The notes beneath the pieces are model-generated. The model saw nothing but the letters and a program-made list of their open reading frames with translations. It did not search any database and had not been told where the DNA came from. Made by a program: the position numbers and the translations under genes. 64,000 bases of DNA from Callorhinchus milii (taxonomy: Eukaryota): the NCBI RefSeq assembly GCF_018977255.1, contig NW_024704765.1, positions 4,402,001 through 4,466,000 on the forward strand. The letters are read 5' to 3'. Shown piece by piece: positions 2,399-25,825 of the stretch; position 1 is the stretch's first letter, and every line of letters starts with the position of its first letter.

Positions 2399-3850
2399 TC
2401 AGCTCTGCCAGGGTCTCCAGAGAGCACGGACGCTGGGCTGGGAGCTGTGCGTGACAGAGTCCTGACAGGACTTGCTGTGCGGAGGGCAAACAGTGCAGTA
2501 ATGTGGCTCCTCTCCCGCTCCCTGTAATGCCTGCAGTAAGTTGCGAACGCCTGGTGTCCTGGTCTCTGGCAACGACAGAAAGTGCAGCGTCTTCTGTAGA
2601 CAGCGAGAGTAGCCGGCCTTATAGTCCTGCAGAGGGTTTGGCGTCTGGCAATCAGCTGCTGTGAGAGAGAAACAGTCAAACGTTATAATAATAATAAAAT
2701 AATAATAATAATCCTTACATTTGATATAGTGCCTTAGCTTGTCTCAAAGCACTTCACGGAATATACCGTAAAGTGTATTTTGTGGACAAAACTATGTATA
2801 TGTCTTTATGTATAAGTAGACTAATAGACAAATGTTCCTATGTACTGTATAATGTTTATGTCTTTACGTATAAAGCTCCAGCTCATTCACAGACAAGTGT
2901 ATCTACCATCCAGGAACCAGACTACCAAAACTGCCACAGAAGGCTGGCTTGATTCTGACATTCTGTTGCCGAACGTGTCACCCCGGAGCCAATTCAGCTC
3001 CAAGGAGACCTTCTTTACTTTCCTCCCCCCAGGAGAATTTTTTCTCCTGGAGAATTTTTTCTCCTGGGGGGAGGAATGACTAATTGGTCATTTGACATCT
3101 GAGAAGCGCGGGTTTGATCCTCATTAGATGAATGATAGATACGAGTAAAGGTCTGGGAGCTTCCTGGTGGGCAACGCAGCTCAGCATGAAATAGGTGAGA
3201 GCTTTGCCAACATCTTCCTGTCCGCAGCTGGGACACGAATACCTTCCCATCAGGCACTGGCTGGTCAGTTAGCCTTCAGTTGCAATCACACAGTGCGCAG
3301 TCAGTGCCGGCGGAGGCAACGTGTGGAAGACAGACACTCACCGAGCTCGGGGTTGTGTTGCAGGTAGCTGAGTGTGCTCTCCAGGATGACCGCCTTCTCC
3401 AGTTTGCAGTTTGCTCGCTCATTCTGTAACTGTGTCCCCAGTAACTGCTTCAGTTGGGCGATGCTCTGGTTGATGCGATCCCGTCGCCTCTTCTCCACCA
3501 TCGGCTTCATCAGCTGCACAGACACACAGAGAAACATGACCGTCAGCAACTCTGACCCCCAACACAAGACACTCACTGGCAGCATTTACACTCTTTATTA
3601 GGGACACAATTGCCCCCCAACAGCTGTCAGACACCCACAAATAAGACTCTGAGTAACAATTACTGTTAAATGGCAATCAGACCGCACGCGCACACAATGC
3701 CCTCGTTCCCTCCCAAACTGTTGTGGTTTCAAACGGAATCCAGTTGAAGTGGCTTCGCTGCCTCTCACTTACTCTGCATTTCTCTTTGGCTGTCAGTGGA
3801 CCCTGACACCGGCCTCTGCTCAGATACTCCACACGGGCGCTGGGAGCCAT
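2399..3850 (-). CDS. hes5: HES5-like bHLH-Orange-WRPW transcriptional repressor, copy 1 (intact, 169 aa)
   Basis: Exons 3850-3773 (MAPSARVEYLSRGRCQGPLTAKEKCR), 3513-3342 (LMKPMVEKRRRDRINQSIAQLKQLLG...KLEKAVILE) and 2658-2399 (Orange QDYKAGYSRCLQKTLHFLS ... LWRPWQS*). GT/AG junctions keep frame (510 nt). The MAPS..LT.KEK.R/L.KP.VEK.RRDRIN start and 3-exon layout resemble HES5, not HES3. Exact paralogue name uncertain. Confidence 0.85.
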
Positions 3851-3914
3851 CGGTGCCAGTCTGGCCAGGAGCAGAGCAGGGAGCGAGTGTGAGTGGTACT
3901 GCCTGGTGCAGGGC

Positions 3915-4003
3915 ATTTAAAGCCCCTGTATTTAAAGCCCATGATTAGCATCTGAGTGCGTGAGGCTCTGCCTTCCCACAGGTTCCCACACTCGGCCACC
4001 AAT
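3915..4003 (-). promoter_or_regulatory. Proximal promoter of hes5-like copy 1: CSL/RBPJ sites, CCAAT, TATA-like
   Basis: TGTGGGAA x2 (3983-3990, 3973-3980), inverted CGTGAGGC (3959-3966), CCAAT at ~3999-4003 and TTTAAATA. The block recurs upstream of all four hes copies. Confidence 0.75.
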
Positions 4004-4424
4004 CCCCGGTCTCAGGGGGACAGTGAGTGATGGCTCCATTATTTCAACTTCTATTGACCGCTGGCTCTGGTTAAACACATTGCCTGATGGCAGTTTGAGT
4101 CTGTGGGAGACAAGGTTCAATAGCCAGAGTCCGGGGTCTCCCTGCAAGATCCTGGGAAACCCCGGGGTCAAAGCCTTCCCACCAAATCCACTGTCTGTCA
4201 TATTGTTTTGCAATTATTGTTCTGTTTTTGCTCCCTTGAATACTTAAATTCTTAATTCAACCTGCCCTGCACAGCATGTTGTTCAATTGCCTTTAGAGTG
4301 AAGGGTCTCATCTGACAAGAGGGCTTGAAGCCCTACTTCAGGCTGGGATTTCTGTGCTGGTTGAGGAATCCTCTGCTACATTGTCCAAAAGGGCTGTCTC
4401 AATATTGAGATAGTTTTATCAGTA

Positions 4425-5516: not shown

Positions 5517-5710
5517 GTGGAGCAGTGTGCCTTTAAGTGACGGTGTTGTTCGCACAGTTCCACAATGAAGAGTTTCAGTGGCAAACCATCCACACTATTG
5601 TTCCTCTCAATGAGGTTTTTCTTTTGTGAAGAGAGCACAGCTGTGGAGCTGAAGCCTCTAATCTGCTGCTCGTGGGAAACATGCTGCACCAGCCCTCTCA
5701 CACTCTCCGT
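5517..5710. promoter_or_regulatory. Candidate distal Notch-responsive enhancer, duplicated at 10628-10810
   Basis: CTATTGTT (SOX-like) 5595-5602, CAGCTG 5638-5643, TAATCT 5659-5664, CGTGGGAA 5671-5678 + 16 bp + CTCTCACA 5695-5702. The same motifs occur in the paralogous block. Confidence 0.6.
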
Positions 5711-7705
5711 CAAATTCTGCCTGTCTTTGCACTTAAGGCAGAATGGCACAGAAATAATTGTTCCAATGAGTATGATTCTTCCCGATGAAGTTCTTCTCCC
5801 TGCGTTTTATATCTTATTTGAGCCTGGATCAGATTTTTTTTAATCATTATTTTTTCTCTCCCTGTTGAATACATCTCATCTGTTTAAGGACAAATCAACC
5901 AGAGTTGCCTCACCTAATCACTAACCCCACCCCACCCCCAACACCCAACACACGCACGCATGCCATGGAGTACATGCATGGTTAGATGTCTGGCAATGAC
6001 ACAGGAACATGGTCAGTGCACAAAGTCAGGTATCCTGCCCACACTCACTAGGCTTAGACACGAAGAGTGTCACAGGATAGGAGGTGGGCGTGGGTGGGAG
6101 GGTGGAGGGGCTTAGCGGAGGTTAATCAGCGCCAGATTGGCTAACAGACGGGGTGTTAAACTGTGGCTTTGCTGTGCTGTTCGGCTGGGTTTCACATGAG
6201 GAAAATCTTTTCATCATGCAGTCATTTGAAATTAAGGCAGGAAAGCAAGTATCTGAGATGACCAGGTTAGTGCTAAGCACCTCTTCCACATGTTTCCCAA
6301 ACTCAGACGCCAATCACTGCATTCAGCCACAAACACTATATCAAATGCAAGGTTATTATTATTATTATTACATGGGCATACCGAGGCCAATTGGAGTTCC
6401 ACCACTTCCCCAAGTGACAGCCTCCCTCTTCACCTTTGAACCTCTGCATTGATACACTTGGAAAACTTTAAGGAACTTTGTCATCAACAGTGGAAAGACC
6501 TAAAGGAGGAATTCCTTCCTGCACACTTTGTGATCTGAATTTAAGGATGGTGGGGAATGGGTCAGTTTACTCTTAATATACCACAGTTATATTCCAGAGG
6601 ATGTTCACAAGTTTTGTGTGTGTTTTTCTTGTGATTCTTATATTCTTAAACTAAATTTTAGTTCCTTTAGTTCTTTCATTTTTCTTCCAATTGTTTTGTT
6701 TTGTTTCTTCTCCAGAAGCCATCAGACTATTTATGGTTCTGCAATTACCCTCCAGTACCTCGCAAAAGCTTATTAAGTAACCTGGAAAAGAAACTGTCCC
6801 TATTGATTTCTGATTTAATTAGCCCCCGTCCCCCCAAATAAAGACTGAATCCCATGAGTTTAAACCCAAACCACCTTGGTACAGTATAAAATATCCCTCA
6901 CATTGTTTCAAAATTATTTTATTTATCCATCCTAGTTTATAACAACAACAAGAACAACTTTCATGTATATCGCACCCTGTAACATGCGGAATCATAAAAC
7001 AAAAACAGTATTTGCAAAGTATAAAACATTTCATGCAAAACCACATCTCTTGATCACAACAGTCAATTTTGCATTCACTGACCCTCTCAGTCTTCGTGCG
7101 GGAAGTATGGTGAGGATGAGAAAGAATGTGTCTCATGACCTTTCTAATTTTCTCCCCTTCTCCCCTAAAGGTACCAACATGAACTAGACATTCGATCTAC
7201 AGGTCCCTCCCTGTCTCAAGTGACCTTTTTTCATGCGCCAGTAAGACAGTGAGTGTTGATATGATATTCAACCATGAGGTGCATTCCAACCAAGGCGGAT
7301 CTGGTCTGATATCCACAAGCATGACCTTGACCAGCAGGCAATAGTGATCAGGAGAGGGAACCCTCTGGCTAAATCTCAGCCCCTGTGATTACAGGGTCTT
7401 TCTATTGCGTCCAATTAGCCACAGTTGTGGCACGTTGCTGATTTAAATCCTACTCTCAGTTCTATATTCACACTCATAGTTCATCTGGGGATACGGAGGC
7501 TTATCTGTCTGCAACAAATAAGCCACCTGGATCCGTGCTATTGGTGCCTGACTCAGCTAGGGAAACAGGATTTGTGTGACTTAGCATCAGGGCAATAAAT
7601 ACTCATCATCTCACTGGCGACATTTGCAAATGATGGACACACTGAAAACCAACCCCACTGAGCTGACACCTCCAAAAGTTCCTAAGTCTCTACATTTCAC
7701 AGACA

Positions 7706-9320
7706 TTACACATCACAAAGAGCAGGATTCTGGGTCCAACTGAAGCAGCTTTTTGAGAGAGGGAGTGTATGTGCAAAGCCTTTCAACTCTGTCTGGATCT
7801 GCTGAGTATTGGAGTGACACGGTCCCTCTTCCACACTTTCCTTCAGCACTTCCAGAGTTGCTGCCATCTTGGGTTGACCACAAGTGTCGGATCTCTTGCA
7901 CACACTTGTTGTGTATCGCTTGAATTTATTCGGCTGGTGGGATGCTGCAATCAACCAAAAAGAAAGAGATTTGTGAATGAAATGCTAGCATTATTACAGG
8001 GGTTACTTCCCAAATCTAACTATTAACAGCAATGATTGAAATTATAATAATAATCCTTGTATTTGATAAAGTGCCTTATCACGTCTTCAAGACGTCTCAA
8101 AGCGCTTCACAGAATATACTGTAAAATGAATTGACAGCATATTTTGTGGGCGAAATGCGGCAGCCAATTGCACACAGCAGCGTCCCACAAACAGCCGTGG
8201 ATTGAGTGACCAAATTACTATTTATTTATTTTTGAAGGGATTATTAGCCCCGCAAAAGCAATCCGCCAATCGACTAACAATCGGGTTCCTACGTACTGCT
8301 GGGTAAACAGAGGCGTGTGTGGAGTGAGGAAACTTGCCCAACGTTTCACTTGCCGGGAATCGAACCCAGGGCTCTCGCTTGCGAAGCGAGTGCTCTAACC
8401 ACTGAGCTACAGGACTCCACAATGCCATTTCTTGTCACAATCTAAGGAGCACTTGAGGAATTGGAAGCTTACTCTGAACTCAGGGCGTGTGCCAGCCTCG
8501 GTGCTGCTTCATTTCCATGATGACAGCTTCCTCCAGTTTGCCGAGTGCTCCATGTTCCTCTCCACCAACTTCTTCAGCTGAGTGATGCTGTCGTTTATAC
8601 GATCTCTGCAGCTCTTTTCAATGATGATTGGCTTCATCAACTGTAATGAAGCAAAAAAAAGACATTGATTGAATTGTCATCAAAATAATTTCCCTCCCTC
8701 TCCCCATGCATTATTCTCGCTTGAGGATGTAGACTATTGTCTTGGAGGATAGTTACAGTATCTTTCCCAGTCGTCTTGATGTGTTAAATCAGACGATGAG
8801 TGTTGGTAGAATATTTAACCACAGAGGCATCACAGCTGAACCCAACCCTTACCTCTCCCCCTGCCATAATGCATACAGCAACGAGAGATCTAAAATGTGT
8901 TCAGGAACTGGAACATTTTCACTGATTCCCCCCCCACTCCCCTTTATAATTCGCAATCAGCAAACTCAGCACCAAACAGGATTGTAACTAATAACAATAA
9001 TAATAATCATTGCATTTGATGTAGCGCTTTATCATGTCTTTGAGACAGCTCAAAACGCTTAACAGAATATACTATAAAGTGATTTAACTGTATATTTTGC
9101 AGGCAAAATGAGACCTTCTGGGATCTGGCTGTCTGTACTTACCCACTGATCCATCAGAGGAACCTTTATTAAAAACTTTACATTTTAGTTTAGCTCTAGA
9201 AGTGACGCATTTACACTCCATATTATTTGGAAAATCTGAACTTACTCTACATTTCTCTTTGGCTGTCAGCCTGGAGTACTCTCCGATTAGCAGGAGATCA
9301 GCAGGGGCACTTGGAGCCAT
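7706..9320 (-). pseudogene. HES5-like copy 2, degenerate pseudogene
   Basis: Exon 1 9320-9246 MAPSAPADLLLIGEYSRLTAKEKCR. Exon 2 8640-8473 LMKPIIIEKSCRDRINDSITQLKKLV..., then a frameshift before KLEEAVIME and an in-frame TGA at 8509-8511. Putative exon 3 from 7944 with an Orange-like relic (HNKCVQEIRHLWS) and no WRPW. 3' boundary approximate. Confidence 0.75.
8043..8420 (-). mobile_element. Full-length tRNA-derived SINE (abundant family in this window)
   Basis: Head GTAGCTCAGTGGTTAGAGCACTCGC..GGTTCGATTCC (A/B boxes), body GGGCAAGTTTCC..GCCTCTGTTTACCCAGCAG, tail GAAGCGCTTTGAGACGTC..AAATGCAAGG(ATT)n. Confidence 0.88.
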
Positions 9321-9409
9321 TGCGCTAAGACTGGATAGGAGCAAAGAATTCTGATCTGGACGTCGCTGGTGCTGCCTCTTGCAGGTCTGAAGACTTCAGC
9401 CCCAAAACT

Positions 9410-9665
9410 CCTGTATTTAAAGCCTGTGATTAGCATCTCAGTGCGTGAGGCTCTGCCTATCCACAGGTTCCCACACTCGGCCGCCAATCCCCGGTCTCAG
9501 GGGGACAGTGAGTGATGGCTCCATTATTTCAAGCTCTATTGACCATTGGCTTTGGTTAAACACATTGCCTGGTGAGCAGGTGGAGTATGTGTGAGCCAGG
9601 GTTCATTGCTGGAGACTGAGGACTCCCTGCAAAATCCTGGGAAAACCTGAGGTCAGAGCCTTCCC
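9410..9665 (-). promoter_or_regulatory. Promoter of hes5-like copy 2
   Basis: TGTGGGAA 9468-9475 intact, inner site mutated (9458-9465), CGTGAGGC 9444-9451. Upstream sequence is homologous to 3990-4185. Confidence 0.65.
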
Positions 9666-10627: not shown

Positions 10628-10810
10628 ATGGAGCAGTGTGTCTTTAAGTGGTGTTGGAGTTTGTTCAGCTTCACAGTAAAGAGTCTCAGTAGCTCTATTG
10701 TTCCTCTCAATGAGGCTTCTCTTTTGTGAGGAGAGCACAGCTGTGGAACTGGAGTCCCTCTAATCTACTGCTCGTGGGAAACACACTGCTCTGGTCCTCT
10801 CACACTCCCC
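10628..10810. promoter_or_regulatory. Candidate distal enhancer, paralogue of 5517-5710
   Basis: CTATTGTT 10695-10702, CAGCTG 10738-10743, TAATCT 10761-10766, CGTGGGAA 10773-10780 + 16 bp + CTCTCACA 10797-10804. Confidence 0.6.
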
Positions 10811-13800
10811 GGTCAGCAGCACACACATGCATGCACACATCCATATGCTCAGGAATAGGAACCTTGGCTGATTTTGCCTCTCCCTAAGCCAAGGGGACTG
10901 AAGTCAGTTGTAGCCCTGGATGATATCTGCTAACTGAGTACTGATTCAAAACTGTGATTTAAACCTGGGATATTCTTAGCTTGCGTGCATCATCTATTCA
11001 TTCGTTCATTTATTCACTGGGTCACCAGAGCAACAGTTTATATTTGCAGGGGGTTGTGCAGTGTGAATGTAAAAATATTTCACATATAAATGCCAACAAA
11101 ATATACAGTCAATTCATTTTACAGTATATTATGTGAACTGCTTTTAGATGTGTCGAAGTTGTGATAAGGTGCTATATCAAATGCAAGGATTATTATTGTT
11201 ATTTCAATGATTGCAGTTAGTAGTTAAATTTAGGAAGTAACCACTGTAAAAACGTTCATATTTCACTCAAAAATCTCTTTCTTGATAAAACGCTATATTA
11301 AATGCAAGGATTATTATTGAGTCAAACTTTAATGTAATTCACTGGCAGAGCATATCAGAGAGTGGTTGCAGGTGTTCCAAGCAATAGAAAATACGATAAC
11401 GTTAGTAAATTTGGACTAAATTAGAGACAAAACAAATAAATTCTGTTTCGTTTGGACTTTTATGATCTTTTCAATATATTAATGGTGCAGAAATAAGCTT
11501 GGAGATGTACGTTTCGAAGAAGAAAGCAGAAAATTGTAAAGGGACATATTAAGTGATTGGGCAAATTTATGGCAGAAGGAGTTCAACATAGCAGGTACTT
11601 GATAAGAATGGATCTGAAATATAAAAAGAAGGAAGTGTTGCTGTAGCTATATAAAACACTGGTCACAACTCATTTTGTGTTTGGTTTTGAACACCTACCT
11701 TTGATAATTCCTGTGATGAAGATACTTAGCCTATGATGAGAGGTTGGGTCAACTAGGGTTATTCCCTGGTGGTGAGGAGGTAGAAGGGATGTGATTGAAG
11801 ATTTTAGTGTGAAATATTAGAAAGTGGCTTTCCCTGGGATACTCTGCAGACGCAGTGTTATAATTTCTCCTCAAAACTCTGAGACTGATTTTATTCAGTT
11901 TTGTGCCTCCTTTATTCCAGACACAAGAAAAACACAATCTTGTTTCTAGCGCTCAAATCTCAATAGAGGAGACACAACAACAACAACTTGCATTTCTATA
12001 GTGCCTTCATGTTTGTTTGTGGGACACTGCTGTGCGCAATTGGCTGCCGCGTTTCGCCCACAAAATATACAGTCAATTCACTTTTCAGTATATTGAAACA
12101 CTTTGAAGCGCTGAAATTGAAGTATTTCAGCGAAGCACTTTGAGACGTCTCAAAGAGATCAGAAGGCGCTATTGCAAGGATTGTTATTATTATTGTAGGG
12201 TGGTATCTTGGAGGGCTTTAAAGCCAGACAGGGAGCCAGGAGAGGAAAACTGTGAGGCAGATGACAGCACTTGCACAGGTCTGGAACCTTGGCAAGGAGT
12301 TCATCTCCACTGTTCTAATACGTGGAACGTGTTACATTTGTTTTATTTTGGGTTTTCATTTTCTGAGCAGTTGGCATTAAAGGGTTAAAATCAGGCACTG
12401 CCTTTGTGTCCTTCAAATGGAAATGTTCCTGGCCCTAATTACCCTCTGAGCACTGAGGGGCTGAGCTTTCTCAGGCTCTGGGAATTTCACATGACATTAA
12501 TATCCTGGGGTGTGAGCGACACACTTACTGTCCAGATGCTCCTCAAGGAAATAGGTTGCAACTGCCCACGATCCTGAGTCACAGCCCAGCACTAATTCCC
12601 CGTGTACTCAGCCACACGCCTTTTGTGTCTTGCCGACTGAAACAATTGACTGCAGTGTGGGAAACTGTGAACACACAGTCTTGTCATCTCTATTACCCAA
12701 GCCCTCTCTCTCTCTTTGCTATTCTCCTCTTGACTCCATCAAAAGTAAGTCTTGCTCTGCTAAACTTCCGTCCTGTGAGATAGTAGATGTTATTTACCTG
12801 GAATTTGGAAAGGCATTTGACACTGTTCCATCGACTACTGTAGAAGATTTTGCCTCCAAAGCCAGTCACTGTGCTTGACAGTAATCACTTGTCAAGCGCT
12901 TTAGGATTTTTGACATGATAAGGTGCTATAAAAATGTAAATTCAAAGGTTTAAAACAATGCCATAGGTCCATTAAACTGGTTCAGCAAATGGATGTTTTA
13001 TGTGCCACAGAGGGCAGTGCTGGGACCACAATTAGTTATAATTTAAAAAATTAATTGGCGAACTGGTATTCTGGCAATTGCATCTAAATTTCCAAATTGG
13101 AGACTATTTCAATGTGACAATCAGCTGCCGCATTTCATCCAGAAAATGTACAATCAATTCATTTTACAGTATATTCTGTGAAGCGCTTTGAGATGTCTCA
13201 ACGACGTGATAAGGCACTATATCAAATACAAGGATTATTATTATGATGATAATCAATGTGCACTAAACCAGAGGGATTTGGAGTAACTGAAGTTGTGGCT
13301 CTAAAGGTGACAGATGCAGTTTAACACAGAGACATGTAAAGTGATGGCATTGGGCAGATGAAAGGGCAGTGTGGAATACGTGTAAAATTGTGTCCACCCT
13401 GGTGAGATCACATTAGCTTGAATGTGAAACTACACTGTTTGAAGTCATTATTTGCAGTTTGGGCTTTCCTTATTTCAAAAAAGATGATTTGTAAGAGGGA
13501 TTGAGTTTAGCTGTGACACTCTGTCCATCTCCTTCCCATGACTCAGTTATGTAACCTCCAGACACTGTGCCAACTGAAATAATAAACCTTGCATTTGATA
13601 TAACCCCTTATAAAGTTTCGAAGCACTTCGCAGGATATGCTGTGAAGTGAATTGACTGTGTATTTTGTGGGTGAAATTACCATTCGAGATCAGGTACCAA
13701 AAGATGTCACAGGCAGCATAGGCGAGGATAGGAGAGAAATAGAGGAGGGAGTGATGCTTTCATAGAGAAAAGGAACAACATGGCAATTTTGATGTAACAT

Positions 13801-14497
13801 TTTATTAGGAAAAGGCAACAGCTCCGTAAAATATACAAAACCTTCTCATGAAAACACAACATACACAACACATCAATTACCTGATAATATTCGCTTTTAG
13901 TAACAAAGCTACAGAACTCACACATGGCGGAGAAATAACTTATTTTCACACTGTAAATTCACTGAACTTGAGACACTGTGTGTGTGATTATTTTGATTGT
14001 CACCCCCAAACACTGCTCAATTCCATAAATTTACCGTCAAGTGAAAAAAAAAATACCCATTCAACCTTCATCTTCCTTCCAATTACATTCCCAAGATTGA
14101 AATAATTTTATACATCACCAGAAAAGGAAATGATTACATCACATATTGATTTACAATCACAAGAAAGGACTTGCATGTGCACAATGCTTCAACAAATGAA
14201 AATGCTTCAAAACACTTTACTCCAATGACTACTGTAGTGACTGTGATGGAAAGCACAATTGTCAATATGACAAACCGTCATAAATAGTGTTATATTTACA
14301 ACACCATCAGATGTGATGGGAATGGGAATATTCCTTCACAATGAAGGGACATCAGTATTTCAGGCTCCTGAAATAACACACTGGGTGGAGCACACGTCGC
14401 CCACATAACAACAACAAATTACACTTGGACAGCGCCCTTCACGTCCGAAAGACGTCCCATAATGTTATGTTTACAGGCACTCCCGTGTACAGACATC

Positions 14498-15591
14498 TCA
14501 GCTCTGCCAGGGTCTCCAGAGAGCACGGACGCTGGGCTGGGAGCTGTGTGTGACGGAGCCCTGACAGGACTTGCTGCGCGGAGGGCAAACGGTGCAGTAA
14601 CGCGGCTCCTCGCCCGCTCCCTGTAACGGCTGCAGTAAGTTGCGAACGCCTGGTGTCCTGGTCTCTGGCAACGACAGAAAGTGCAGCGTCTTCTGCAGAC
14701 AGCGGGAGTAGCCGGCCTTATAGTCCCGCGGAGGGTGTGGCGTCGGGCAATCAGCGGCTGTGAGAGCGAAACAGCCAAACGTTATAATAACAATAATAAT
14801 CCTTACATTTGATACAGCGCCTTATCGTGTCTTTGAGACGTCTCAAAGCGCTTCGCAGAATATCCCGCAAAGTGAACCGACTGTGTGCTTTGAGGGCGAA
14901 ACCATGTATGTGCCTTTATGTATGAAGCTCCAGCTCTTTCACAGGGGAGTCGGTGTGTGCATCAGGCACTGGATGGTCAGTTAGCCTTCAGCTGCAATCA
15001 CACAGTGCGCGGTCAGTGCCGGCGGAGGCAACGTGTGGGAGACAGACACTCACCGAGCTCGGGGTTGCGTTGCAGGTAAGTGACTGCGCTCTCCAGGATG
15101 TCCGCCTTCTCCAGTTTGCAGTTTGCTCGTTCTTTCTGTAACTGTGTCCCAGTAACTGCTTCAGTTGGGCGATGCTCTGGTTGATGCGATCCCGTCGCCT
15201 CTTCTCCACCATCGGCTTCATCAGCTGCACAGACACACAGAGAAACAAAGACCGTCAGCAACTCTGACCCCCAACACAAGACACTCACTCGCAGCATTTA
15301 CACTCTTTATTAGGGACGCAATTGCCCCCCAACAGCTGTCAGACAGACGCCCAGAAACAAGACGCTGCGTAACGGTTACTGTTAAATGGCAATCAGACCG
15401 CCGGCTGTGCGGACGCACACAATGTCCTCGTTCCCTCCCGAACTGTTGTGGTCTCAAACGGAATCCGGTTGCAGTGGCTTCGCTGCCTCTCACTCACTCA
15501 CTCACTCACTTACTCTGCATTTCTCTGTGGCTGTCAGTGAGCCCTGACACCGGCCTCTGCTCAGATACTCCACACGGGCGCTGGGAGCCAT
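14498..15591 (-). pseudogene. hes5: HES5-like copy 3 (left palindrome arm) with a 1-bp frameshift in exon 2: young pseudogene or sequencing error
   Basis: Exons 15591-15514, 15224-15054 (171 nt vs 172 in copies 1 and 4; GGG instead of GGGG at ~15148-15150) and 14757-14498 ending WRPWQS*. Confidence 0.75.
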
Positions 15592-16254
15592 CGGTGCCAG
15601 TCTGGCCAGGAGCAGAGCAGGGAGCGGGTGTGGGTGGTGCTGCCCGGTGCGGGGCATTTAAAGCCCCTGTATTTAAAGCCCACCGTTAGCATCTGAGTGC
15701 GTGAGGCTCTGCCTTCCCACAGGTTCCCACACACTCGGCCGCCAATCGCAGCGTTCGACCTGCAAACAAAAGACGTGTGTCTGAGCCCCCGGGGGATTGG
15801 CACTGGGCTGTGACTCCTGACTGTGGGCAGCGGCTGCCCATTCCCTGAGGAGCATCTGCACAGTAAGTGTGTCTCTCACACCTCAACTTCTTACTGTCCT
15901 GGTGACACTCCCCAGAGCCTGGGAAAGGCACTGTGGCCACAAAGACACAACTTTTATTGCACAGAAGGATATCACTCTTCAAGGGGGTTTTATGTGTTGG
16001 GTTTGCTGATTGCCTAATATGTAGCCACTTTTAAAATGACCACTGTGTTTGATCTGATCTCCTGTTGAGACCTTTCAACATTTCCTTCACATTGTGCTTT
16101 GGTGCGAGGCTCCCTTGGAAGAAGACACAAGTTAAGACACATAGTATGGGTTCATAAATCACTTGGGAATTTAGAATTACCTTCGCATTTGGTATAACAC
16201 AGTTCATGTTGGGAGGATCTTCCACTCCAACTTAGATTTCCCCAGGTGAGGAGT

Positions 16255-16520
16255 TTGAACTCACATTTGGGGAGGCTGACACTCCAGTGCAGTGCTCGGG
16301 GGTGTTGCATTGTCAGAGATGCAATCCTTCGGATGAGACATTAATCTGAGATCCTGTCTGCCTCTGAAGGTGGATGTTAAAGATCCCATGACATTTTTTG
16401 AAAAAGAGAAGGGGGTTTCTCCTGGTCTCCTGGCCAACAATACCCCGAAATAAACTTGATCATTCACTTCATGGATATGTGTGAGATGTTACTGTGCAAC
16501 TGTTGGCGGCCTTCTTTGTC
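16255..16520 (+). mobile_element. DeuSINE-like fragment in the palindrome spacer
   Basis: GCATTGTCAGAGATGCAATCCTTCGGATGAGACATTAA..AAAGATCCCATG..GTCTCCTGGCCAAC, homologous to 47735-48165. Confidence 0.6.
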
Positions 16521-17209
16521 CACAAATAACAACAACAACAAATTGCACTTGCATAGCACCCTTCACATCGGAAACACGTCTCAGGGCGCTGGATAGTCAG
16601 GGTTGTCTGGACCCGAGCTGGAAACTAGGGTCAGGAGGGGTGGAGAGCATGGATGGGAGAGTGCCCGAAAACAGGGTCGAAGAGGAAGCGACGCAGTTGA
16701 AGAGGAAGGTCAAAAATACGGTATATCCTGTGGAGGATCCTCCCAACATGAACTGTGTTATACCAAATGCGAAGGTAATTCTAAATTCCCAAGTGATTTA
16801 TGAACCTATACTATGTGTCTTAACTTGTGTCTTCTTCCAAGGGAGCCTCGCACCAAAGCACAATGTGAAGGAAATGTTGAAAAGGTCTCAACAGGAGATC
16901 AGATCAAACACAGTGGTCATTTTAAAAGTGGCTACATATTAGGCAATCAGCAAACCCAACACATAAAACCCCTTTGAAGAGTGATATCCTTCTGTGCAAT
17001 AAAAGTTGTGTCTTTGTGGCCACAGTGCCTTTCCCAGGCTCTGGGGAGTGTCACCAGGACAGTAAGAAGTTGAGGTGTGAGAGACACACTTACTGTGCAG
17101 ATGCTCCTCAGGGAATGGGCAGCCGCTGCCCACAGTCAGGAGTCACAGCCCAGTGCCAATCCCCCGGGGGCTCAGACACACGTCTTTTGTTTGCAGGTCG
17201 AACGCTGCG

Positions 17210-17300
17210 ATTGGCGGCCGAGTGTGTGGGAACCTGTGGGAAGGCAGAGCCTCACGCACTCAGATGCTAACGGTGGGCTTTAAATACAGGGGCTTTAAAT
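17210..17300 (+). promoter_or_regulatory. Proximal promoter of hes5-like copy 4 (mirror for copy 3 at ~15655-15746)
   Basis: ATTGG, TGTGGGAA 17225-17232 and 17235-17242, GCCTCACG 17249-17256, TTTAAATA at ~17279. Confidence 0.75.
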
Positions 17301-17364
17301 GCCCCGCACCGGGCAGCACCACCCACACTCGCTCCCTGCTCTGCTCCTGGCCAGACTGGCACCG

Positions 17365-18471
17365 ATGGCTCCCAGCGCCCGTGTGGAGTATCTGAGCAGA
17401 GGCCGGTGTCAGGGCTCACTGACAGCCACAGAGAAATGCAGAGTAAGTGAGTGAGTAAGTGAGTGAGTGAGTGAGTGAGAGGCAGCGAAGCCACTGCAAC
17501 CGGATTCCGTTTGAGACCACAACAGTTCGGGAGGGAACGAGGACATTGTGTGCGTCCGCACAGCCGGCGGTCTGATTGCCATTTAACAGTAACCGTTACG
17601 CAGCGTCTTGTTTCTGGGCGTCTGTCTGACAGCTGTTGGGGGGCAATTGCGTCCCTAATAAAGAGTGTAAATGCTGCGAGTGAGTGTCTTGTGTTGGGGG
17701 TCAGAGTTGCTGACGGTCTTTGTTTCTCTGTGTGTCTGTGCAGCTGATGAAGCCGATGGTGGAGAAGAGGCGACGGGATCGCATCAACCAGAGCATCGCC
17801 CAACTGAAGCAGTTACTGGGGACACAGTTACAGAAAGAACGAGCAAACTGCAAACTGGAGAAGGCGGACATCCTGGAGAGCGCAGTCACTTACCTGCAAC
17901 GCAACCCCGAGCTCGGTGAGTGTCTGTCTCCCACACGTTGCCTCCGCCGGCACTGACCGCGCACTGTGTGATTGCAGCTGAAGGCTAACTGACCATCCAG
18001 TGCCTGATGCACACACCGACTCCCCTGTGAAAGAGCTGGAGCTTCATACATAAAGGCACATACATGGTTTCGCCCTCAAAGCACACAGTCGGTTCACTTT
18101 GCGGGATATTCTGCGAAGCGCTTTGAGACGTCTCAAAGACACGATAAGGCGCTGTATCAAATGTAAGGATTATTATTGTTATTATAACGTTTGGCTGTTT
18201 CGCTCTCACAGCCGCTGATTGCCCGACGCCACACCCTCCGCGGGACTATAAGGCCGGCTACTCCCGCTGTCTGCAGAAGACGCTGCACTTTCTGTCGTTG
18301 CCAGAGACCAGGACACCAGGCGTTCGCAACTTACTGCAGCCGTTACAGGGAGCGGGCGAGGAGCCACGTTACTGCACCGTTTGCCCTCCGCGCACCAAGT
18401 CCTGTCAGGGCTCCGTCACACACAGCTCCCAGCCCAGCGTCCGTGCTCTCTGGAGACCCTGGCAGAGCTGA
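17365..18471 (+). CDS. hes5: HES5-like copy 4 (right palindrome arm, intact, 169 aa)
   Basis: Exons 17365-17442, 17744-17915 and 18212-18471. bHLH LMKPMVEKRRRDRINQSIAQLKQLL...KLEKADILESAVTYL, Orange domain, LWRPWQS*. Canonical splice sites. Confidence 0.88.
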
Positions 18472-20932
18472 GATGTCTGTACACGGGAGTGCCTGTAAAC
18501 ATAACATTATGGGACGTCTTTCGGACGTGAAGGGCGCTGTCCAAGTGTAATTGTTGTTGTTATGTGGGCGACGTGTGCTCCACCCAGTGTGTTATTTCAG
18601 GAGCCTGAAATACTGATGTCCCTTCATTGTGAAGGAATATTCCCATTCCCATCACATCTGATGGTTGTAAATATAACACTATTTATGACGGTTTGTCACA
18701 TTGACCCTTGCAAAGCTGAGCAGACCTCTGTCTCCTCATACTTCAACCTCCATTCCCTCATCAGAGAGTGGAGTGGGTACAGGCCAATGTTATAACTTCA
18801 CAGTGAAGATTTGATGGGCTTTATCACAAGTTCCTGATTTTTTTTTGTAAAATTATGCTTTTTAAGCTTTCAATATTTGAAAGTTTTAGTAAATTTAAAT
18901 ATTGGGTCCTGTCGGTGAGCTGAGAGAACAAACGACTCACATCCCACTAATACCTCCAACTTTTGGTCAGATCATGTATCAGCTCAACTGGTGGCATCCC
19001 ATGATATTTGACAACAGAGGCCATCACAGCCCTGATCCCGTCTGTCCTCACTCTATGTCCACCTGACTGTGGTAGTCCAGTTCCTGAGTCAGGCAGGTTG
19101 GTGGTACCCCAGGGCACTGCTGATGACAGACCAGCAAATCTGGCTCAACAGCAGGACTTGGCTGGGCAGACTCGTCACTGAAAGTAGGGATTCTGCCCAC
19201 TTAACTCCTGTTAACCCTGCAAGCAAAAGCCAAGGGTGGTCCTAGCAGGGGAAGTAGTGGGAAGTTTGCCAGACGGTGCTCTCGAAGGCATTCTTTGCTT
19301 TCATAGCTGGTTAAACTCCAGCAGTTCCCTAACGCATACTCTGGGATCCTCATTCAGGCATCTCATTAGACATTTTTGATCCTGGTGTAATCAAATGAAG
19401 AATCATGTTTAAAATGTGAGACATTGTATTCCTTCATAGTGAAGGGGATTTAGAATCTTTTATTGTGAAAAGACGTTGTAATCTTATATTTTGATGTTAG
19501 CTCTGCGCTGAGCATTGTTCTGGCAGATGTGTCTGTCCCAATCTTGCAACGGGGAAGGTGCGGGTTGCTCTCTGCTGTGAGAGATTGTCACTGGAGAGCA
19601 GTGATGAGGGGCTCACATCAATCCACCATTGTGGAGTTCCACAGTCTACAATTTATTCTGTACTGTGTTTGCACGTTTGTCATAATAAAACGTATACCAA
19701 ATCTCTCTTCTTTATGGTTCAATTGCTCTGCTTGCTGTGAAGGCTGTTCCAAATATAGTGCATTACTGAGTACCTTAAAGTCCAACAACCGTCCCTACGA
19801 ATGGGTTACTGTTGAGTCAGATGTACCCTTTGCTGCATGTAACCCGTGCTATAGCTGTCCTGGGAGTGCTGTGTAAGACAGTGGGGAGGTTTTCTGTATG
19901 TAACGCACGTTATACAGTGGTTGAATTGGGAGATGCTGGTTGAGAATATAGGATGTAAAAGCTGTGAAACAAAGTCCCATTTCTTCAGTAATTACCGTCC
20001 TGAGGGAATCAATGGCTTCAGACCATTGATGTAATAGATGTATCATTCGCATCCGACATGTTATTTCCCGCCCGAAACCAGCAGAAGGCGCCAGAAGATA
20101 ACTAACAGCCAATGCCAAAAAAAAGCCACGAGAGACTTTCGAGATTTTAAGTTAATTCCTCACATAATAATCCTTGCATTTGACACACCTTCAAGACGTC
20201 TTAAAGTGCTTCGCAGAACATACCGTAAAGTGAATTGACTTGTGCATTCTGTGGGCGAAACCCGGCAGTCGATCGCGCACAGCAGCGTCCCACAAGGTCA
20301 CGGGAGTGAGCGACCAAATTATTATTATTATTAATGATTATTTTTTAATTTAACTGTACCACTCCACACGATAAGGCGTCTCCCATTTGTGTTACCCAGC
20401 TTCCTTATTAAGCAAGCTCCTTAAGTTTGCGCGGAAATGGTGGCACAATTTTTCCTCCCACTTGGTGATGGGTTTCCACTCGGTGATGGGCGTCACCTTG
20501 GCTGACACCAAAAAAAAAACAGTGCAGTTGGGGGCCCTGACCCCGGGGTCGGAGGAGAAAAGTCGGCCGGGATTTGGTGCCCCCGATCCGGAGAGCGAGC
20601 TCCCGCTGGACGATCCGTTGGGGCTGTGATACCAGGGTCAAACGTACCGGTGACGCTCACTGTTAAAGCTCAAACGAGGATCTGGGCCACTTGGGTGAGG
20701 TCCTGGGAGGCCACACTGGGAGGAGGGAACACTTTTCGGTGGGGGGGGGGGGGGGATGGGGAGAGGGACGGGGAGGGATGGGGAGAGGGACGGGGAGAGG
20801 GACGGGACGGAGGGAGGGATGGGGGGGGAGAGAAAAGCGCAAGAGAAAAAGGCTCTTAAAAATATTTGCAAACTATTATTGCTTTATTACCAATAGGAGA
20901 CATAAAAGTAAATGGACTCAAAAATTCTCCCC

Positions 20933-21860
20933 CGGTGCCAGTCTTAATGCCAGGCTCAGCTGCAAGTTCCTAATGCCAGGCTCAGGTGCCAGTCCCTGAT
21001 GTCAGGCTCAGGTGCCAGTCTTTACGCCAGGCTTGGGTAGGTGCCAGCCATGATGCCAGGCTCAGATGTCAGTCCCAGTCTCAATGCCAAGCTCAGATCG
21101 GTTACCAGCCCTGGTGCCAGGCTCAGGTGCCAGTCTCAATGTCAGGCTCAGATAGGTGCCAGCCATGATGCCAGGCTCAGGTGCCAGTCCCGATGCCAGG
21201 CTCAGGTGCCAGTCCCGATGCCAGGCTCAGGTGCCAGTCCCGATGCCAGGCTCAGGTGCCAGCCCTGGTGCCAGGCTCAGGTGCCACCCCTGATGCCAGG
21301 CTCCGGTTCCAGTCCCGATGCCAGGCTCGAGTAGGTGCCACCCCCGATGCCAGGCTCAGGTAGGTGCCAGCCCTGGTGCCAGGCTCAGGTGCCAGCCCTG
21401 GTGCCAAGCTCAGGTGCCAGCCCTGGTGCCAGGCTCAGGTGCCAGCCCTGGTGCCAGGCTCAGGTGCCACCCCTGATGCCAGGCTCCGGTTCCAGTCCCG
21501 ATGCCAGGCTCGAGTAGGTGCCACCCCCGATGCCAGGCTCAGGTAGGTGCCAGCCCTGGTGCCAGGCTCAGGTGCCAGCCCTGGTGCCAAGCTCAGGTGC
21601 CAGCCCTGGTGCCAGGCTCAGGTGCCAGCCCTGGTGCCAGCCCCGATGCCACCCCTGGTGCCAGGCTCAGGTAGGTGCCAGCCCTGGTGCCAGCCCCGAT
21701 GCCAGGCTCAGGTAGGTGCCAGCCCTGGTGCCAGGCTCAGGTGGCAGCCCTGGTGCCAGGCTCAGGTAGGTGCCAGCCCTGGTGCCACCCCCGATGCCAG
21801 GCTCAGGTAGGTGCCAGCCCTGGTGCCAGCCCCGATGCCAGTTCCCGGTGTGAGGCTCAG
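20933..21860. repeat. GC-rich minisatellite (TGCCAGGCTCAGG/TGCCAGCCCTGG variants) upstream of ICMT
   Basis: Many ~12-13 nt subunits forming 25/29-nt units, with a 183-bp higher-order duplication (identical ORFs at 21335 and 21518). Confidence 0.9.
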
Positions 21861-22051: not shown

Positions 22052-25000
22052 ATGGCGGGCCCGGCTCCCGGCACCTTCGCCCTCGGCCTGTCGGTCACGC
22101 TGCTGCCCGCGGTGACCGGGGCCCCGGCCGGGCCGCTGGGCCGCGCCCTCGTCGCCGGGTACCTGGCGGCGCTCAACGGCCTCCTGCTGCTGCTGTACCG
22201 CGGCCCGGCCTACCAGGTCAGGTCAGGTCAGGTCAGGTCAGCCCGGGGCCTGGGCCTCGGCCCGCGGGCCCCAGTGCCGGGGGGGGGGGGGGGAGCAGTG
22301 GGGGGGAGTGGGGGGGAGGAGTGGGGGGAGCAGTGAGTGGGGGGAGCAGTGGGGAGCAGTGGGGGGAGTAGTGGGGGGGGAGCAGTGGGGAGCAGTGGGG
22401 GGAGAGTGGGGTATGGGGAGCAGTGGGGGGGAGCAGTGTGGGGTATGGGAGCAGTGGGGGGGAGCAGTGGGGGTGGGGAGCAGTGGGAGCAGTGGGGGGG
22501 GAGCAGTGTGGGTATGGGGAGCAGTGGGGGGAGCAGTGGGGGGGGGAGCAGTGGGGGTGGGGAGCAGTGGGGTGGGAGCAGTGGGGGGGAGCAGTGGTGG
22601 GGGGAGCAGTGGGGTTGGGGAGCAGTGGGGGGTATGGGGAGCAGTGGGGGGTATGGGGAGCAGTGGGGGGGGGAGTGGGGGATAATAATAATCCTTATAT
22701 TTGCTTCGCGTCTTGTCGTTGAGACGTCTCAAAGCCCTTCGCAAAATACACTGTAAAGGGTAGTGACTGTGTTTTTAGAAGGGTTGGGGGGTTGGGAAGG
22801 GGGTTGCCGTGCGGGCAGGATGGGAGGGGGGGGGGGGGTTGGGGGGTCTGGGGAGGGGAGTTGGGGGGGTCTGCCTCATTTGCCGGGGGCTCTGCTGGGG
22901 TCCGTGTACACCTCGGCCGCCTCGTAATCGCCGCCTCTCTCCGCAGGTCGCGGTCCGGGCCTGTTTCCTCGGGTTCGCCTTTGGCTGCGGTTTACTGCTG
23001 AGCTTCGGAGGGGCTTCGTGGCAACACTTTGGCTGGTAATCGGCCTCCGGCGAGGGCGCCGTGCGCCGCCGTGTCAGGGATCGCGCTCCTTAGCTGCGGC
23101 CGGCTCTCTTAATGAGCTTCCGAACGCTCCCGGCGCTTCTCCCCTCGCTGTGCGACGGTCAGCGGTGCCGTCGGGAGACTGTTCGAGGAGGACGTTTGAA
23201 AAGAGAAGAGAGTTAGTTCCTCCCCGGGTTCCTGGCCAGCGATCTTCCAAATTAATTAGTTATTCCCCCGGTGGCGTGTGGGACCTTGTTTGGCTGTTAA
23301 CGCAAACCTGACAGTCGTGGTGCTGATGATGATAATAATCCTCGCATTTGATATTGCGCCTTATCGCGTCTCCGAGACGTCTCAAAGCGCTTCACAGAAT
23401 ATACTGCGAAGGGAGTCGACTGTATGTTTCGTGGGCGAAACGCAGCAGTCAATCTCGCACAGCAGCGTCCCACAGACAGTCGTGAACTAACGCTAAAAAT
23501 GCATGTTCTTGCTCTCTGCTGCTTGGCAGGTATCTGTGCTCGTTGAGTTTTTTCCACTACTCGGAGTACCTGGTGACGGCCATCATTAACCCCCAGTCCC
23601 TCTCCCTCGACTCGTTTCTGCTGAACCACAGCCTGGAGTACAAACTGGCGGCCATGTCTTCCTGGGTGGAGTTCACGATCGAAAAGCTCTTCTTCCCAGG
23701 TTAGTCTGTCAACAACAACAACAACAACAACCGCAAATTACATTTACACGGCGTCTTTCACGTAGGGAGGACGTCCCAAGGCCCTGGACAGTCAAAGATT
23801 TGCACCAGAGCTGGGGCTTGGGATCAGGAGAGGTGGAGGGCAGGGGAGGGTGGGGGCAGGAGGGTGACAGACAGCACGGTTGAAGAGGTAGGTCTTGAGA
23901 CGGGCCTCGAATGAGGCGAAGGGACTCTGGGATGGAGTTCCAAAAGGTGGGGACGGAGAGGCTGAAGGCCCGAACGCTGATGGTCGGGCGGGCAGGGCGG
24001 GGGACATGGAGCAGGCCAGAGCTCCGCCAGAGGAGAGCGGTGTGACGTGTGAAGAGTCGAGCTGGATTATGAAATCTACCAAAGCTGACCGTGTGTGTGT
24101 TTATGTGTGTGGGTGTGTGTGTTTATATGTGTGGGTTTATGTGCGTCTTTGCAGAGCTGAAGCAGCTGAGGTGGTTGAGCTGCCTGGGCCTGGCGATGGT
24201 GCTGGTGGGAGAGACGCTGAGGAAAGTGGCCATGCTGACTGCCGGCTCCAACTTCAACCACATTGTGCAGAACGAGAAGTCAGAAAGCCACCAGCTCGTC
24301 ACCTCCGGGGTCTATGCCTGGTTCCGGCACCCCTCCTACGTGGGCTGGTTTTACTGGAGCATCGGCACTCAGGTACGGACGTCTGGCGTTCAGTCACTCG
24401 CTTCCCTGCTGAAACCACGTTAAATAAAAATAAATAACAATTGTATTACAGGGGGGGCGAAACGTTGGGCAAGTTCTTTACTCCATGCACCTCTGTTTAC
24501 CTCGCAGCAAGTAGGAACCCAGTTGTTAGTCGATTGGCGGATCGCTTTTCCAGTGGTGATAATCCCTGAAAAAAATTGGTCAGTCAATCCAAGACTATTT
24601 GTGGGATGTCGCTGTGCGCAATTGGCTGTCACGATTAGCCANNNNNNNNNNNNNNNNNNNNNNNNNGCAGAGCTGAAGCAGCTGAGGTGGTTGAGCTGCC
24701 TGGGCCTGGCGATGGTGCTGGTGGGAGAGACGCTGAGGAAAGTGGCCATGCTGACTGCCGGCTCCAACTTCAACCACATTGTGCAGAACGAGAAGTCAGA
24801 AAGCCACCAGCTCGTCACCTCCGGGGTCTATGCCTGGTTCCGGCACCCCTCCTACGTGGGCTGGTTTTACTGGAGCATCGGCACTCAGGTACGGACGTCT
24901 GGCGTTCAGTCACTCGCTTCCCTGCTGAAACCACGTTAAATAAAAATAAATAACAATTGTATTACAGGGGGGGCGAAACGTTGGGCAAGTTCTTTACTCC

Positions 25001-25825
25001 ATGCACCTCTGTTTACCTCGCAGCAAGTAGGAACCCAGTTGTTAGTCGATTGGCGGATCGCTTTTCCAGTGGTGATAATCCCTGAAAAAAATTGGTCAGT
25101 CAATCCAAGACTATTTGTGGGATGTCGCTGTGCGCAATTGGCTGTCACGATTAGCCAACAAAATATACAGTCAATTCACTTTATATTATATTCTGTGAAG
25201 CGCTTTGAGATGTCTTGAAGACGTGATCAGGTGCTATATCAAATGCAAGATTATTATTATATTATTAAAATGTTACATTCAAAACCTTCAAAGCTACCTT
25301 CCCCCCTGGGCCCGCCCTATCATCGGCGGTAGGGTCTTCAGCTTCTCTGTACTTACCCTTTGGAACTCCATCCCACAGTCCCTTCGCCTCGCTCCCTCCC
25401 TCCCTCCCTCGCCTCATTCAAGGCTCGTCTCAAGACCCTCCTGTTTAACTACGCCTTTGGCCAATCTCCTATCTGTACCCTCCCCCGCCCTCCGCCCCTC
25501 CTAATCCAAACCCCAGCTCAGGTCCAAATCCCTGACTGTCCAGCACCTTGGGACGACATCCCAACGTGAAAGGCATTATACAAATGCAATTTGTTGTTGT
25601 TCTAGTCTTGCTAACACGTCTTCCTGTTTTCCTTTGCTTCAGGTGATCCTGTGTAACCCCATCTGCATCGTGGGCTACACGCTAGCCTCTTGGCGCTTTT
25701 TCCGAGAGCGTATTGAAGAGGAGGAGGTCACTCTGATCCATTTCTTTGGCGAAGATTACCTGCTGTACAAGAAGCAGGTTTCGACCGGGCTGCCCTTCAT
25801 CCAAGGAGTCAAAGTAGAGCCGTAG
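22052..25825 (+). CDS. ICMT: Isoprenylcysteine carboxyl methyltransferase (274 aa)
   Basis: Exons 22052-22216, 22947-23035, 23530-23699, 24155-24372 and 25643-25825. Motifs RACFLGF, FHYSEYL, AGSNFNH.VQNEK, RHPSYVGWFYWSIGTQ and WRFFRERIEEEE. AATAAA at 26889-26894. Confidence 0.96.
22280..22681 (+). repeat. G-rich (GGGGAGCAGT)n tandem repeat in ICMT intron 1
   Basis: Dozens of GAGCAGT units separated by G-runs. Confidence 0.9.
24667..25157 (+). other. Duplicate of ICMT exon 4 plus flank next to the 25-N gap (likely assembly artefact)
   Basis: 24667-25157 repeats 24151-24641, apparently exactly, and the two are separated only by Ns at 24642-24666. Confidence 0.85.

Follow-up and report, generated by a model that had tools for sequence, protein, structure and literature searches.

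Two hes5-like genes of the elephant shark, Callorhinchus milii, lie head to head as the arms of a palindrome, which raises the question of how two whole genes come to be nearly identical, introns included. For this locus, which lies in a window of 64,000 nucleotides (the whole stretch of DNA analysed), the original prediction offered either a very recent inverted duplication or an older pair kept identical by gene conversion between the arms. That choice was a fair one, and of its two branches conversion now has the better support. The genes form a real inverted repeat and are, with a probability of roughly three in four, an old pair kept alike by repeated, probably GC-biased, inter-arm gene conversion.

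Structure of the inverted repeat

Self-BLAST joins positions 14261-16225 to 18705-16730 in a single inverted match (1979 columns, 98.8%, 7 mismatches, 5 gaps), bearing out the predicted reverse-complement arms of about 1.97 kb. The left arm (14261-16225, minus strand), delimited by self-BLAST and alignment, comprises an upstream block, a promoter, a hes5-like gene with exons at 15591-15514, 15224-15054 and 14757-14498, and part of the 3'UTR. The right arm (16730-18705, plus strand) comprises an upstream block, a promoter, an intact hes5-like gene of 169 codons (exons 17365-17442, 17744-17915 and 18212-18471) and 234 bp of 3'UTR. Introns in both three-exon genes are GT-AG, and the start codons, at 15591 (minus) and 17365 (plus), are separated by 1774 bp. 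The spacer between the arms (16226-16729, 504 bp), predicted to be unique and about 500 bp long, is single-copy as a whole but consists mostly of two repeat remnants (16275-16467 and 16525-16652); compared with itself, it gives a weak low-complexity match whose score 6/300 shuffles reach. Folding of the inner arms, considered as a candidate feature, merely restates the inverted repeat.

Between the arms, 1962 bases align and 7 of them differ (0.36%; 99.6% alike). Substitutions number 4/634 in the upstream block and 5'UTR, 0/76, 0/171 and 2/260 in exons 1 to 3, 0/291 and 0/296 in introns 1 and 2 (0/587 together), and 1/234 in the 3'UTR; introns and intergenic DNA are as alike as had been claimed. 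Three of the five gaps fall within single-base runs. The reported (GAGT)n length difference is corrected here to 12 bp of repeat units, placed at the donor of exon 1.

The description of a whole three-exon gene in each arm holds for the exons and introns, but in the assembly the left copy carries a frameshift, one G being missing from the exon 2 G-run near 15150. This run (15147-15150, minus strand) lacks one base relative to the right arm and to copy 3, a paralogue described below, and the left coding sequence measures 509 nt against 510 nt. No corresponding gap occurs among the listed contigs of four other sequencing runs (X1-X4), and the frameshift is possibly an assembly error.

The surrounding hes5-like cluster

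The pair is present as originally described and belongs to a larger cluster, of which the original prediction missed copies 3 and 4. Copy 3 (2279-4004, minus strand; coding exons 3850-3773, 3513-3342 and 2658-2399) is an intact paralogue of 169 codons, 10 kb from the pair and spliced in run X18. Copy 4 (6935-9489, minus strand) is also spliced in X18 (9347-9246, 8640-8473, 7944-6935) and is broken, with its first stop after 68 codons and WRPW absent from every frame. About 3 kb from the pair stands an orphan promoter of arm type (12466-12681, plus strand), which differs from the right arm by 49 substitutions in 215 columns (23%), a score that 0/100 shuffles reach. No gene was found behind it (31, 34 and 7 of 100 shuffles reach the scores, and no in-window translated match lies there).

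The gene name hes5 is likely. Both intact copies, the right one and copy 3, carry WRPW together with what we take, by eye, to be a bHLH domain. In Hes proteins WRPW usually forms the final four residues; two residues lie beyond it in both intact copies. The gene icmt adjoins the cluster (Pfam PF04140). Of 8 neighbour frames, Pfam assigned 2, both to ICMT, and it found no match in four candidate frames for rnf207; the neighbours are presumably rnf207, rpl22 and chd5, named by eye, and neither nol9 nor pank4 was seen in the 64-kb window.

The elephant shark genes hes5 Sc58-1, -2 and -3 are described as clustered, with three exons and 169 aa each, in the hes5 clade (PMC8320183). They are probably the genes found here, matched by number, exons and length rather than by sequence: exon number and 169 aa are the same in copy 3 and the right arm, whereas the left arm is one base short. 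That study places the Sc58 cluster near nol9, a gene not seen in this window. Its main text does not mention a palindrome, near-identity, conversion, a broken fourth copy or relics. The same study reports icmt beside the zebrafish her4 cluster, but also beside Xenopus hes3.

Two tandem CSL/RBPJ sites matching the consensus of PMC7685452 lie in the right promoter (17225-17242, plus strand), with further pairs at the left mirror position (15714-15731) and in copy 3 (3973-3990); the left, right and copy-3 promoters thus hold two each, and copy 4 has one. The sites here are in tandem, whereas mouse and human Hes5 have a head-to-head paired site (PMC7685452). Because each gene of the pair has its own two CSL sites, both would be Notch-inducible; family knowledge predicts that they act as repressors adding to copy 3. 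The suggestion that the palindrome doubles the dosage of a Notch effector is not supported, given copy 3, intact and 10 kb away, and the frameshift in the assembled left copy. It is weakened further in that no listed RNA contig distinguishes the left arm from the right, and zebrafish without all nine hes5 homologues are reported to be largely normal (bioRxiv 10.1101/2022.09.15.508073). None of the listed pieces of runs X10, X11 and X18 falls on the arms, though X18 shows some depth in two right-arm bins, a result that speaks neither for nor against arm expression. Candidate 3'-end signals lie at 13806 in the left flank and at 19684 in the right flank.

The palindrome in other samples

The original prediction left open that the palindrome is an assembly fold-back or is private to the sequenced animal. 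The surroundings lend this some colour, as 491 bp of icmt are duplicated exactly on the two sides of a 25-N gap, and the single-base runs that hold most of the arm gaps point the same way. Contigs of other sequencing runs, 24 of them listed and all of one species label, served for comparison. In X1-X4, contigs of the left flank continue for 37-81 bases within the left arm, and those of the right flank for 37-79 bases within the right arm; spacer contigs run into the right arm and end at 16759 in 4/4 runs, while arm contigs begin exactly at 16730 (X1, X2) or finish at 16225 (X4). Within each of these runs, 3/3 listed arm contigs are deeper than 5/5 listed single-copy contigs, at 1.6-3.2x their mean, so the proposed read-depth check comes out in favour of two arms. 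Since contigs fork at the arm ends and the arms are deeper in four of four other samples, the palindrome is not a fold-back. In addition, a 412-base contig of X5 spans the short microsatellite form and matches the left arm at every base, and three 169-aa hes5 genes are reported on one elephant shark scaffold (PMC8320183). The artefact or private palindrome is thus already largely refuted, and we regard it as very improbable.

Probable traces of an older divergence

The outer end of the right arm (18657-18699, plus strand) is polymorphic among the contigs of X1-X4 and is likely a conversion tract. The window, X3 and X4 have a left-like form, whereas X1 and X2 depart from the left arm by 7 substitutions plus two differing letters within about 45 bases. 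X1/X2 differ from the left arm at 7/47 outer positions, whereas elsewhere the arms of the window differ at 6/1913 (Fisher p 4e-9 with each letter counted). These outer-end differences are clustered, about five events in all, and a single complex mutation might account for them. The divergent contigs continue into the unique right flank, and X1 and X2 have the same right-arm junction as the window. By eye, this outer end resembles copy 3 over seven letters (18674-18680 against 2204-2198), a hint too short to give the change a direction.

Immediately behind the right arm lies a relic of an older hes5-like gene end (18703-18853, plus strand), with last codons, stop and proximal 3'UTR of copy-3 type, which meets the arm at a 3-letter microhomology (18703-18705). 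It differs from copy 3 by 24 substitutions in 132 columns (18%), a score reached by 0/300 shuffles, and 2 of its 14 last coding letters are changed, one destroying the final W of WRPW; the relic could have been dead already before the arm landed on top of it. Other comparisons gave no supported homology: shuffles reached the score in 12/300 cases for left against right flank, 50/300 for left flank against copy 3 distal, 13/300 for right flank distal against copy 3 distal, and 146/300 and 20/300 for arm upstream against the upstream regions of copies 3 and 4.

Copy 3 is a mosaic whose likeness to the arms is confined to the stretch between promoter and stop, which is taken as a sign of conversion within the cluster. 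Its upstream region resembles copy 4 (24/176 and 29/184 differences), the stretch from promoter to stop resembles the arms (8/154, 3/78, 17/259, 8/172, 29/274 and 17/260), and the part after the stop resembles the relic (7/52 differences, against 21/49 for the arm).

At sites that differ between arm and copy 3, the arm base is G/C in 57 cases and A/T in 8; the ratio is 33:4 in a strict non-coding count and 20:3 at non-CpG sites, and comparisons leaving out the arms give 6:8, 12:8 and 13:12. A SINE-like remnant in intron 2 (18066-18191, plus strand), common to both arms and copy 3, is likewise GC-shifted in the arms: its changes toward and away from G/C stand at 9:1, and 24 other copies together give 97:103 (p 0.019), although 2 of these 24 single copies are equally shifted (10:0 and 9:1). 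The repeat tail within the arm 3'UTR has no such shift (3:2), the strict count of arm against orphan promoter is only 15:8 toward G/C, and polarising with copy 4 leaves just 8 sites, three of them adjacent. Because the arms are CpG-rich (observed/expected 0.66-0.67), low methylation may contribute to the shift.

Old pair or recent duplicate

The left gene may alternatively have been duplicated recently, in inverted orientation, onto a dead plus-strand copy and become common or fixed, with conversion in a minor role; the arms would then be alike because little time has elapsed. The sharp arm ends, the microhomology junction and the lack of supported homology between the flanks (12/300 shuffles) all suit such an origin, the arm difference of 0.36% lies within the window-to-sample flank difference of 0-1.4% per contig, and young head-to-head duplicates are reported to be common in vertebrates (PMC3194840). 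Yet X1 and X2 share the junction and are still 9 letters away from the left arm in the adjoining bases, copy 3 is a mosaic, and the arms are GC-shifted across their whole divergence from copy 3; a recent origin therefore appears unlikely. Purifying selection on protein and regulation, keeping two old copies alike without conversion, would account for the CSL sites kept in both promoters and for pN 0.044 below pS 0.092 between right arm and copy 3. It is scarcely credible as the whole explanation because selection does not hold intron or repeat DNA identical: the introns, repeat remnant included, differ at 0/587 sites between the arms, yet at 46/533 between arm and copy 3.

The old pair kept alike by conversion is favoured over a fresh duplication by the X1/X2 outer end, the relic, the copy-3 mosaic and the GC shift. 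Identity at neutral sites would exceed what the age of the pair allows, with no intron difference set against 15-23% divergence in the X1/X2 end, the relic and the orphan promoter, an age drawn from within one species. Other samples differ from both window arms at 17066/15890 (3/3 covering contigs) and 18050/14919 (3/4 contigs); these contigs keep one allele only, and polymorphism shared by both arms of one animal is no more than a possible reading.

Under this conversion reading, the cluster would have grown by minus-strand tandem copying, which gave copies 3, 4 and left, and one or more plus-strand copies would once have stood at the right position. A repair event may then have overwritten the plus-strand copy there with the left gene, to 234 bp beyond the stop of that gene, and closed at the 3-base microhomology, leaving the relic behind. 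Later breaks in one arm would be repaired on the other, 0.5-4.4 kb away. Because conversion tracts would seldom extend to the outer edge, old divergence could survive there on the X1 and X2 haplotypes, while on others (X3, X4 and the window) the edge would have been overwritten.

Comparison with known systems

Gene conversion is a well-known mechanism, but the literature searched, which did not take in most subscription papers, yielded no earlier report of it in hes5/her15 clusters and no relevant report of hes5 concerted evolution. The Y-chromosome palindromes invoked in the original prediction are an apt analogy in mechanism but not in scale or, as far as the analysis went, in chromosome type; close inverted gene pairs, insect hsp70 among them, come nearer. 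In Diptera, hsp70 forms a close inverted pair within a cluster, homogenised by conversion that fades toward the flanks, and whole 3'UTR tracts are converted in some alleles and unconverted in others (PMC3071340); that gene, however, encodes a stress chaperone, and its shared polymorphism was read from cloned alleles, which the contigs here cannot reveal. The Dlx genes of Capitella teleta are likewise an inverted, linked pair of developmental transcription factors with conversion, but stand tail to tail, 18 kb apart, and are homogenised in the homeobox region only (PMC3199776), unlike the elephant shark pair, which is homogenised over the whole gene and promoter. Primate X and Y palindromes share arm identity above 99% at substitutions, a unique spacer and arm GC enrichment ascribed to biased conversion; their arms reach more than 1 Mb on sex chromosomes and their age is established across species (PMC8981503), whereas the arms here span 2 kb and are dated within one species. 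Among hes5 homologues, zebrafish her4.1-4.5/her12 and her2/her15.1/her15.2 are also clustered, with high within-cluster similarity (bioRxiv 10.1101/2022.09.15.508073), but have two-exon coding regions against three exons here (PMC8320183).

Implications for hes5 evolution

In PMC8320183, hes5 orthology among frogs, gar and elephant shark is left unresolved because the copies of each species group apart. If true, conversion within clusters would explain this species-wise grouping, and hes5 copies would be older than sequence trees suggest. Because the locus is small and four samples include overwritten as well as unconverted outer ends, the length and direction of tracts could be measured here. 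A bolder and rather doubtful extension is that the head-to-head pair is ancient, common to cartilaginous fishes and perhaps to jawed vertebrates, and continually reset by conversion. Were that so, the species-specific hes5 clades of published trees would be an artefact of concerted evolution rather than independent expansions, and this locus would display the eraser in action as a common polymorphism.

An inverted hes5-like gene pair

Self-BLAST of the window identified a sole long inverted match, between 14261-16225 and 18705-16730, with 7 mismatches and 5 gaps in 1979 columns, so the near-perfect inverted gene pair proposed in the original prediction holds. The left arm (14261-16225, minus strand) and the right arm (16730-18705, plus strand) are separated by a 504-bp spacer. 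Of their 7 substitutions in 1962 aligned columns (0.36%), 4 lie upstream, 1 lies in the 3'UTR and 2 lie in exon 3, where one is silent and the other conservative; 0 of 587 intron columns differ. Three of the gaps are single bases (an A at 16880, a G in exon 2 and a T at 18551), one is of two bases (18664), and the longest spans 12 bases of repeat sequence at the exon 1 donor.

The right gene is split into three exons by GT-AG introns, and its 169 codons finish with WRPW and two further residues. A whole three-exon gene had been expected in each arm; the right gene is intact, but the left gene lacks one exon 2 G and loses its reading frame as assembled. Contigs from two other samples, X2 and X3, carry the in-frame form of this G-run, and none of the contigs listed has a gap there. 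Given these contigs and three published 169-aa models, we estimate that an assembly error is somewhat likelier than a null allele. In the right arm, the 12-bp unit repeated at the exon 1 donor (17441-17479) creates another donor-like site 12 bases further downstream, whose use would bring a stop into frame. The two residues past WRPW occur in every copy with an intact end (18460-18471, 14498-14509, and 2399-2410), the left arm being identical there.

The pair in other samples

The contig sets X1-X4 represent four samples from one study, each containing 0.70-0.77 of the window's words, and their contigs break where a two-copy repeat requires. Left-flank contigs stop at 14297 in X3 and X4 and at 14341 in X1 and X2; right-flank contigs start at 18669 or 18627, which a mirror map of the arms shows to be the matching positions. 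In each of the four runs spacer contigs stop at 16759, and there are arm contigs that start at 16730 in X1 and X2 or end at 16225 in X4. All three listed arm contigs are deeper than all five listed single-copy contigs in every run, at 1.6-3.2 times their mean, contig depth not being equal to copy number and some top arm values falling where the intact paralogue, copy 3, also matches. No contig spanning the left inner junction was present among the 32 listed of more than 41,000. An assembly fold-back, already argued against in the original prediction, or a private event is unlikely, given the breaks at arm ends and the deeper arms.

Some arm differences are real alleles, since the A-run occurs in its long form in X2 and its short form in X1 and X4, and the left-arm microsatellite form is present in X5, a further sequencing run. 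Samples are unlike both window arms at 17066/15890 (3/3 covering contigs) and 18050/14919 (3/4), a hint of polymorphism common to both arms, although each contig retains a single allele and polishing might have made the window's arms more alike.

Probable origin and maintenance of the arms

The outer end of the right arm exists in two forms. In X1 and X2, the contig that starts at 18627 and continues into unique right-flank sequence carries six differences from the window at 18657-18679 and two extra letters behind 18664, while X3 and X4 match the window, and are therefore left-like, at 18672-18679. The X1/X2 outer end differs from the left arm by 7 substitutions in 47 positions, versus 6 in 1913 for the remaining arm (p 4e-9 by letters, or about five events when clusters are counted once). 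Both forms have the same flank junction, which consequently predates their split.

At this junction, the arm is fused to a decayed hes5-like gene end in the same orientation, marked by a three-letter microhomology. This relic (18703-18853) aligns with the final codons, stop, and proximal 3'UTR of copy 3, with 24 substitutions in 132 columns (0/300 shuffles), and 2 of its 14 last coding letters are altered. The decayed end indicates, judging from sequence, that a plus-strand hes5-like copy occupied the right position before the present arm.

Copy 3 (2279-4004, minus strand; intact reading frame of 169 codons, 3850-2399) changes its closest relative twice, at the promoter and at the stop. Upstream it lies 14-16% from the broken paralogue, copy 4 (6935-9489, minus strand); from 4004 to 2399, including introns, 4-11% from the arms; and past the stop 13% from the relic, where alignment with the arm 3'UTR is impossible. 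At sites differing between arm and copy 3, the arm carries G/C 57 times and A/T 8 times, with 33:4 in gap-free non-coding columns and 20:3 when CpG is left out, versus 6:8, 12:8, and 13:12 for pairs without arms. Not every count follows this pattern: 2 of 24 other copies of the intron repeat are shifted as far as the 9:1 of the arm, the 3'UTR repeat tail stands at 3:2, and a strict count against an orphan promoter is 15:8. The shift resembles that of primate X palindromes, where GC-biased conversion yields it according to PMC8981503.

The pair is real and likely maintained by conversion. We assign a probability of roughly 0.74, on a within-species comparison, to a history in which a repair event would have copied the left gene onto an older paralogue of the plus strand, generating the present arms, with repeated intrachromosomal conversion keeping them alike since, least often at the outer edge. 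A recent inverted duplication is considerably less probable: the arm difference of 0.36% falls inside the 0-1.4% by which the samples depart from the window in flanking sequence, and fits a young fixed duplication and fast conversion equally, but the two outer-end forms, the relic, the copy 3 mosaic, and the GC shift argue against it. That selection alone keeps the arms alike is very improbable, and an artefactual palindrome, contradicted by the contig breaks and raised arm depth in X1-X4, is just as doubtful.

The surrounding cluster

The arm pair is the end of a larger hes5-like cluster. Copy 4, read from 9320, reaches a stop after 68 codons and lacks WRPW. Run X18, presumed RNA, contains spliced contigs for copies 3 and 4, with the intron limits predicted here for copy 3 and zero differences from the window for copy 4. 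The copy 4 contig (6935-9347, minus strand) is deeper than that of copy 3, though it has no long frame, and copy 4 is a candidate transcribed pseudogene or non-coding RNA. The copy 3 transcript departs from the window at four exon 2 letters (3372-3389, minus strand); two of the three listed are arm letters, and one restores the arm residue at codon 68. The arm-type orphan promoter (12466-12681, plus strand), whose CSL sites are decayed and behind which no gene was found, contains block 17029-17190 of the right arm, which copies 3 and 4 lack. Upstream of these copies lies a duplicated non-coding element (5518-5712 and 10629-10815) whose two versions differ by 29 substitutions over 184 columns; it carries a CSL-type site and is a candidate Notch-responsive enhancer.

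Next to the cluster lies icmt (Pfam), followed by rnf207, rpl22, and chd5, named by eye. A 491-bp exact direct duplicate (24151-24641 and 24667-25157) flanks a 25-N gap, so that one icmt exon appears twice, probably through a scaffolding error. A GC-rich minisatellite of about 0.9 kb with 12-25 bp units (20934-21860) lies immediately upstream of icmt, and, by eye, an rnf207-like intron contains a degraded LINE-like reverse-transcriptase remnant (39000-40800). GC content rises from about 42% at 1-14 kb to 45-64% past 20 kb.

PMC8320183 describes hes5 in the elephant shark as three genes sharing a scaffold, all of them with three exons and encoding 169 aa. They probably correspond to copy 3 and the two arms, a match by number and length rather than sequence. 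Its main text, as far as accessible, does not mention near-identity or conversion of these genes.

Function and comparison with known systems

Each promoter contains two CSL consensus sites, so both arm genes would be Notch-inducible repressors. The proposed doubling of dosage is not supported; copy 3 already encodes a near-identical protein (17 residue differences). Zebrafish in which the nine hes5 homologues are all missing are largely normal in appearance, according to bioRxiv 10.1101/2022.09.15.508073.

In three vertebrates, young head-to-head duplicates account for 13-21% of linked duplication events, as stated in PMC3194840. Our literature search found nothing relevant on hes5 or her15 undergoing conversion or concerted evolution. 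The hes5-like palindrome is too small for a sex-chromosome amplicon. The hes5-like pair would work like the inverted hsp70 pair of flies (PMC3071340), in which the 3'UTR likewise is converted in some alleles and unconverted in others, and like the Capitella Dlx pair (PMC3199776); it likely joins these known conversion-maintained inverted pairs.
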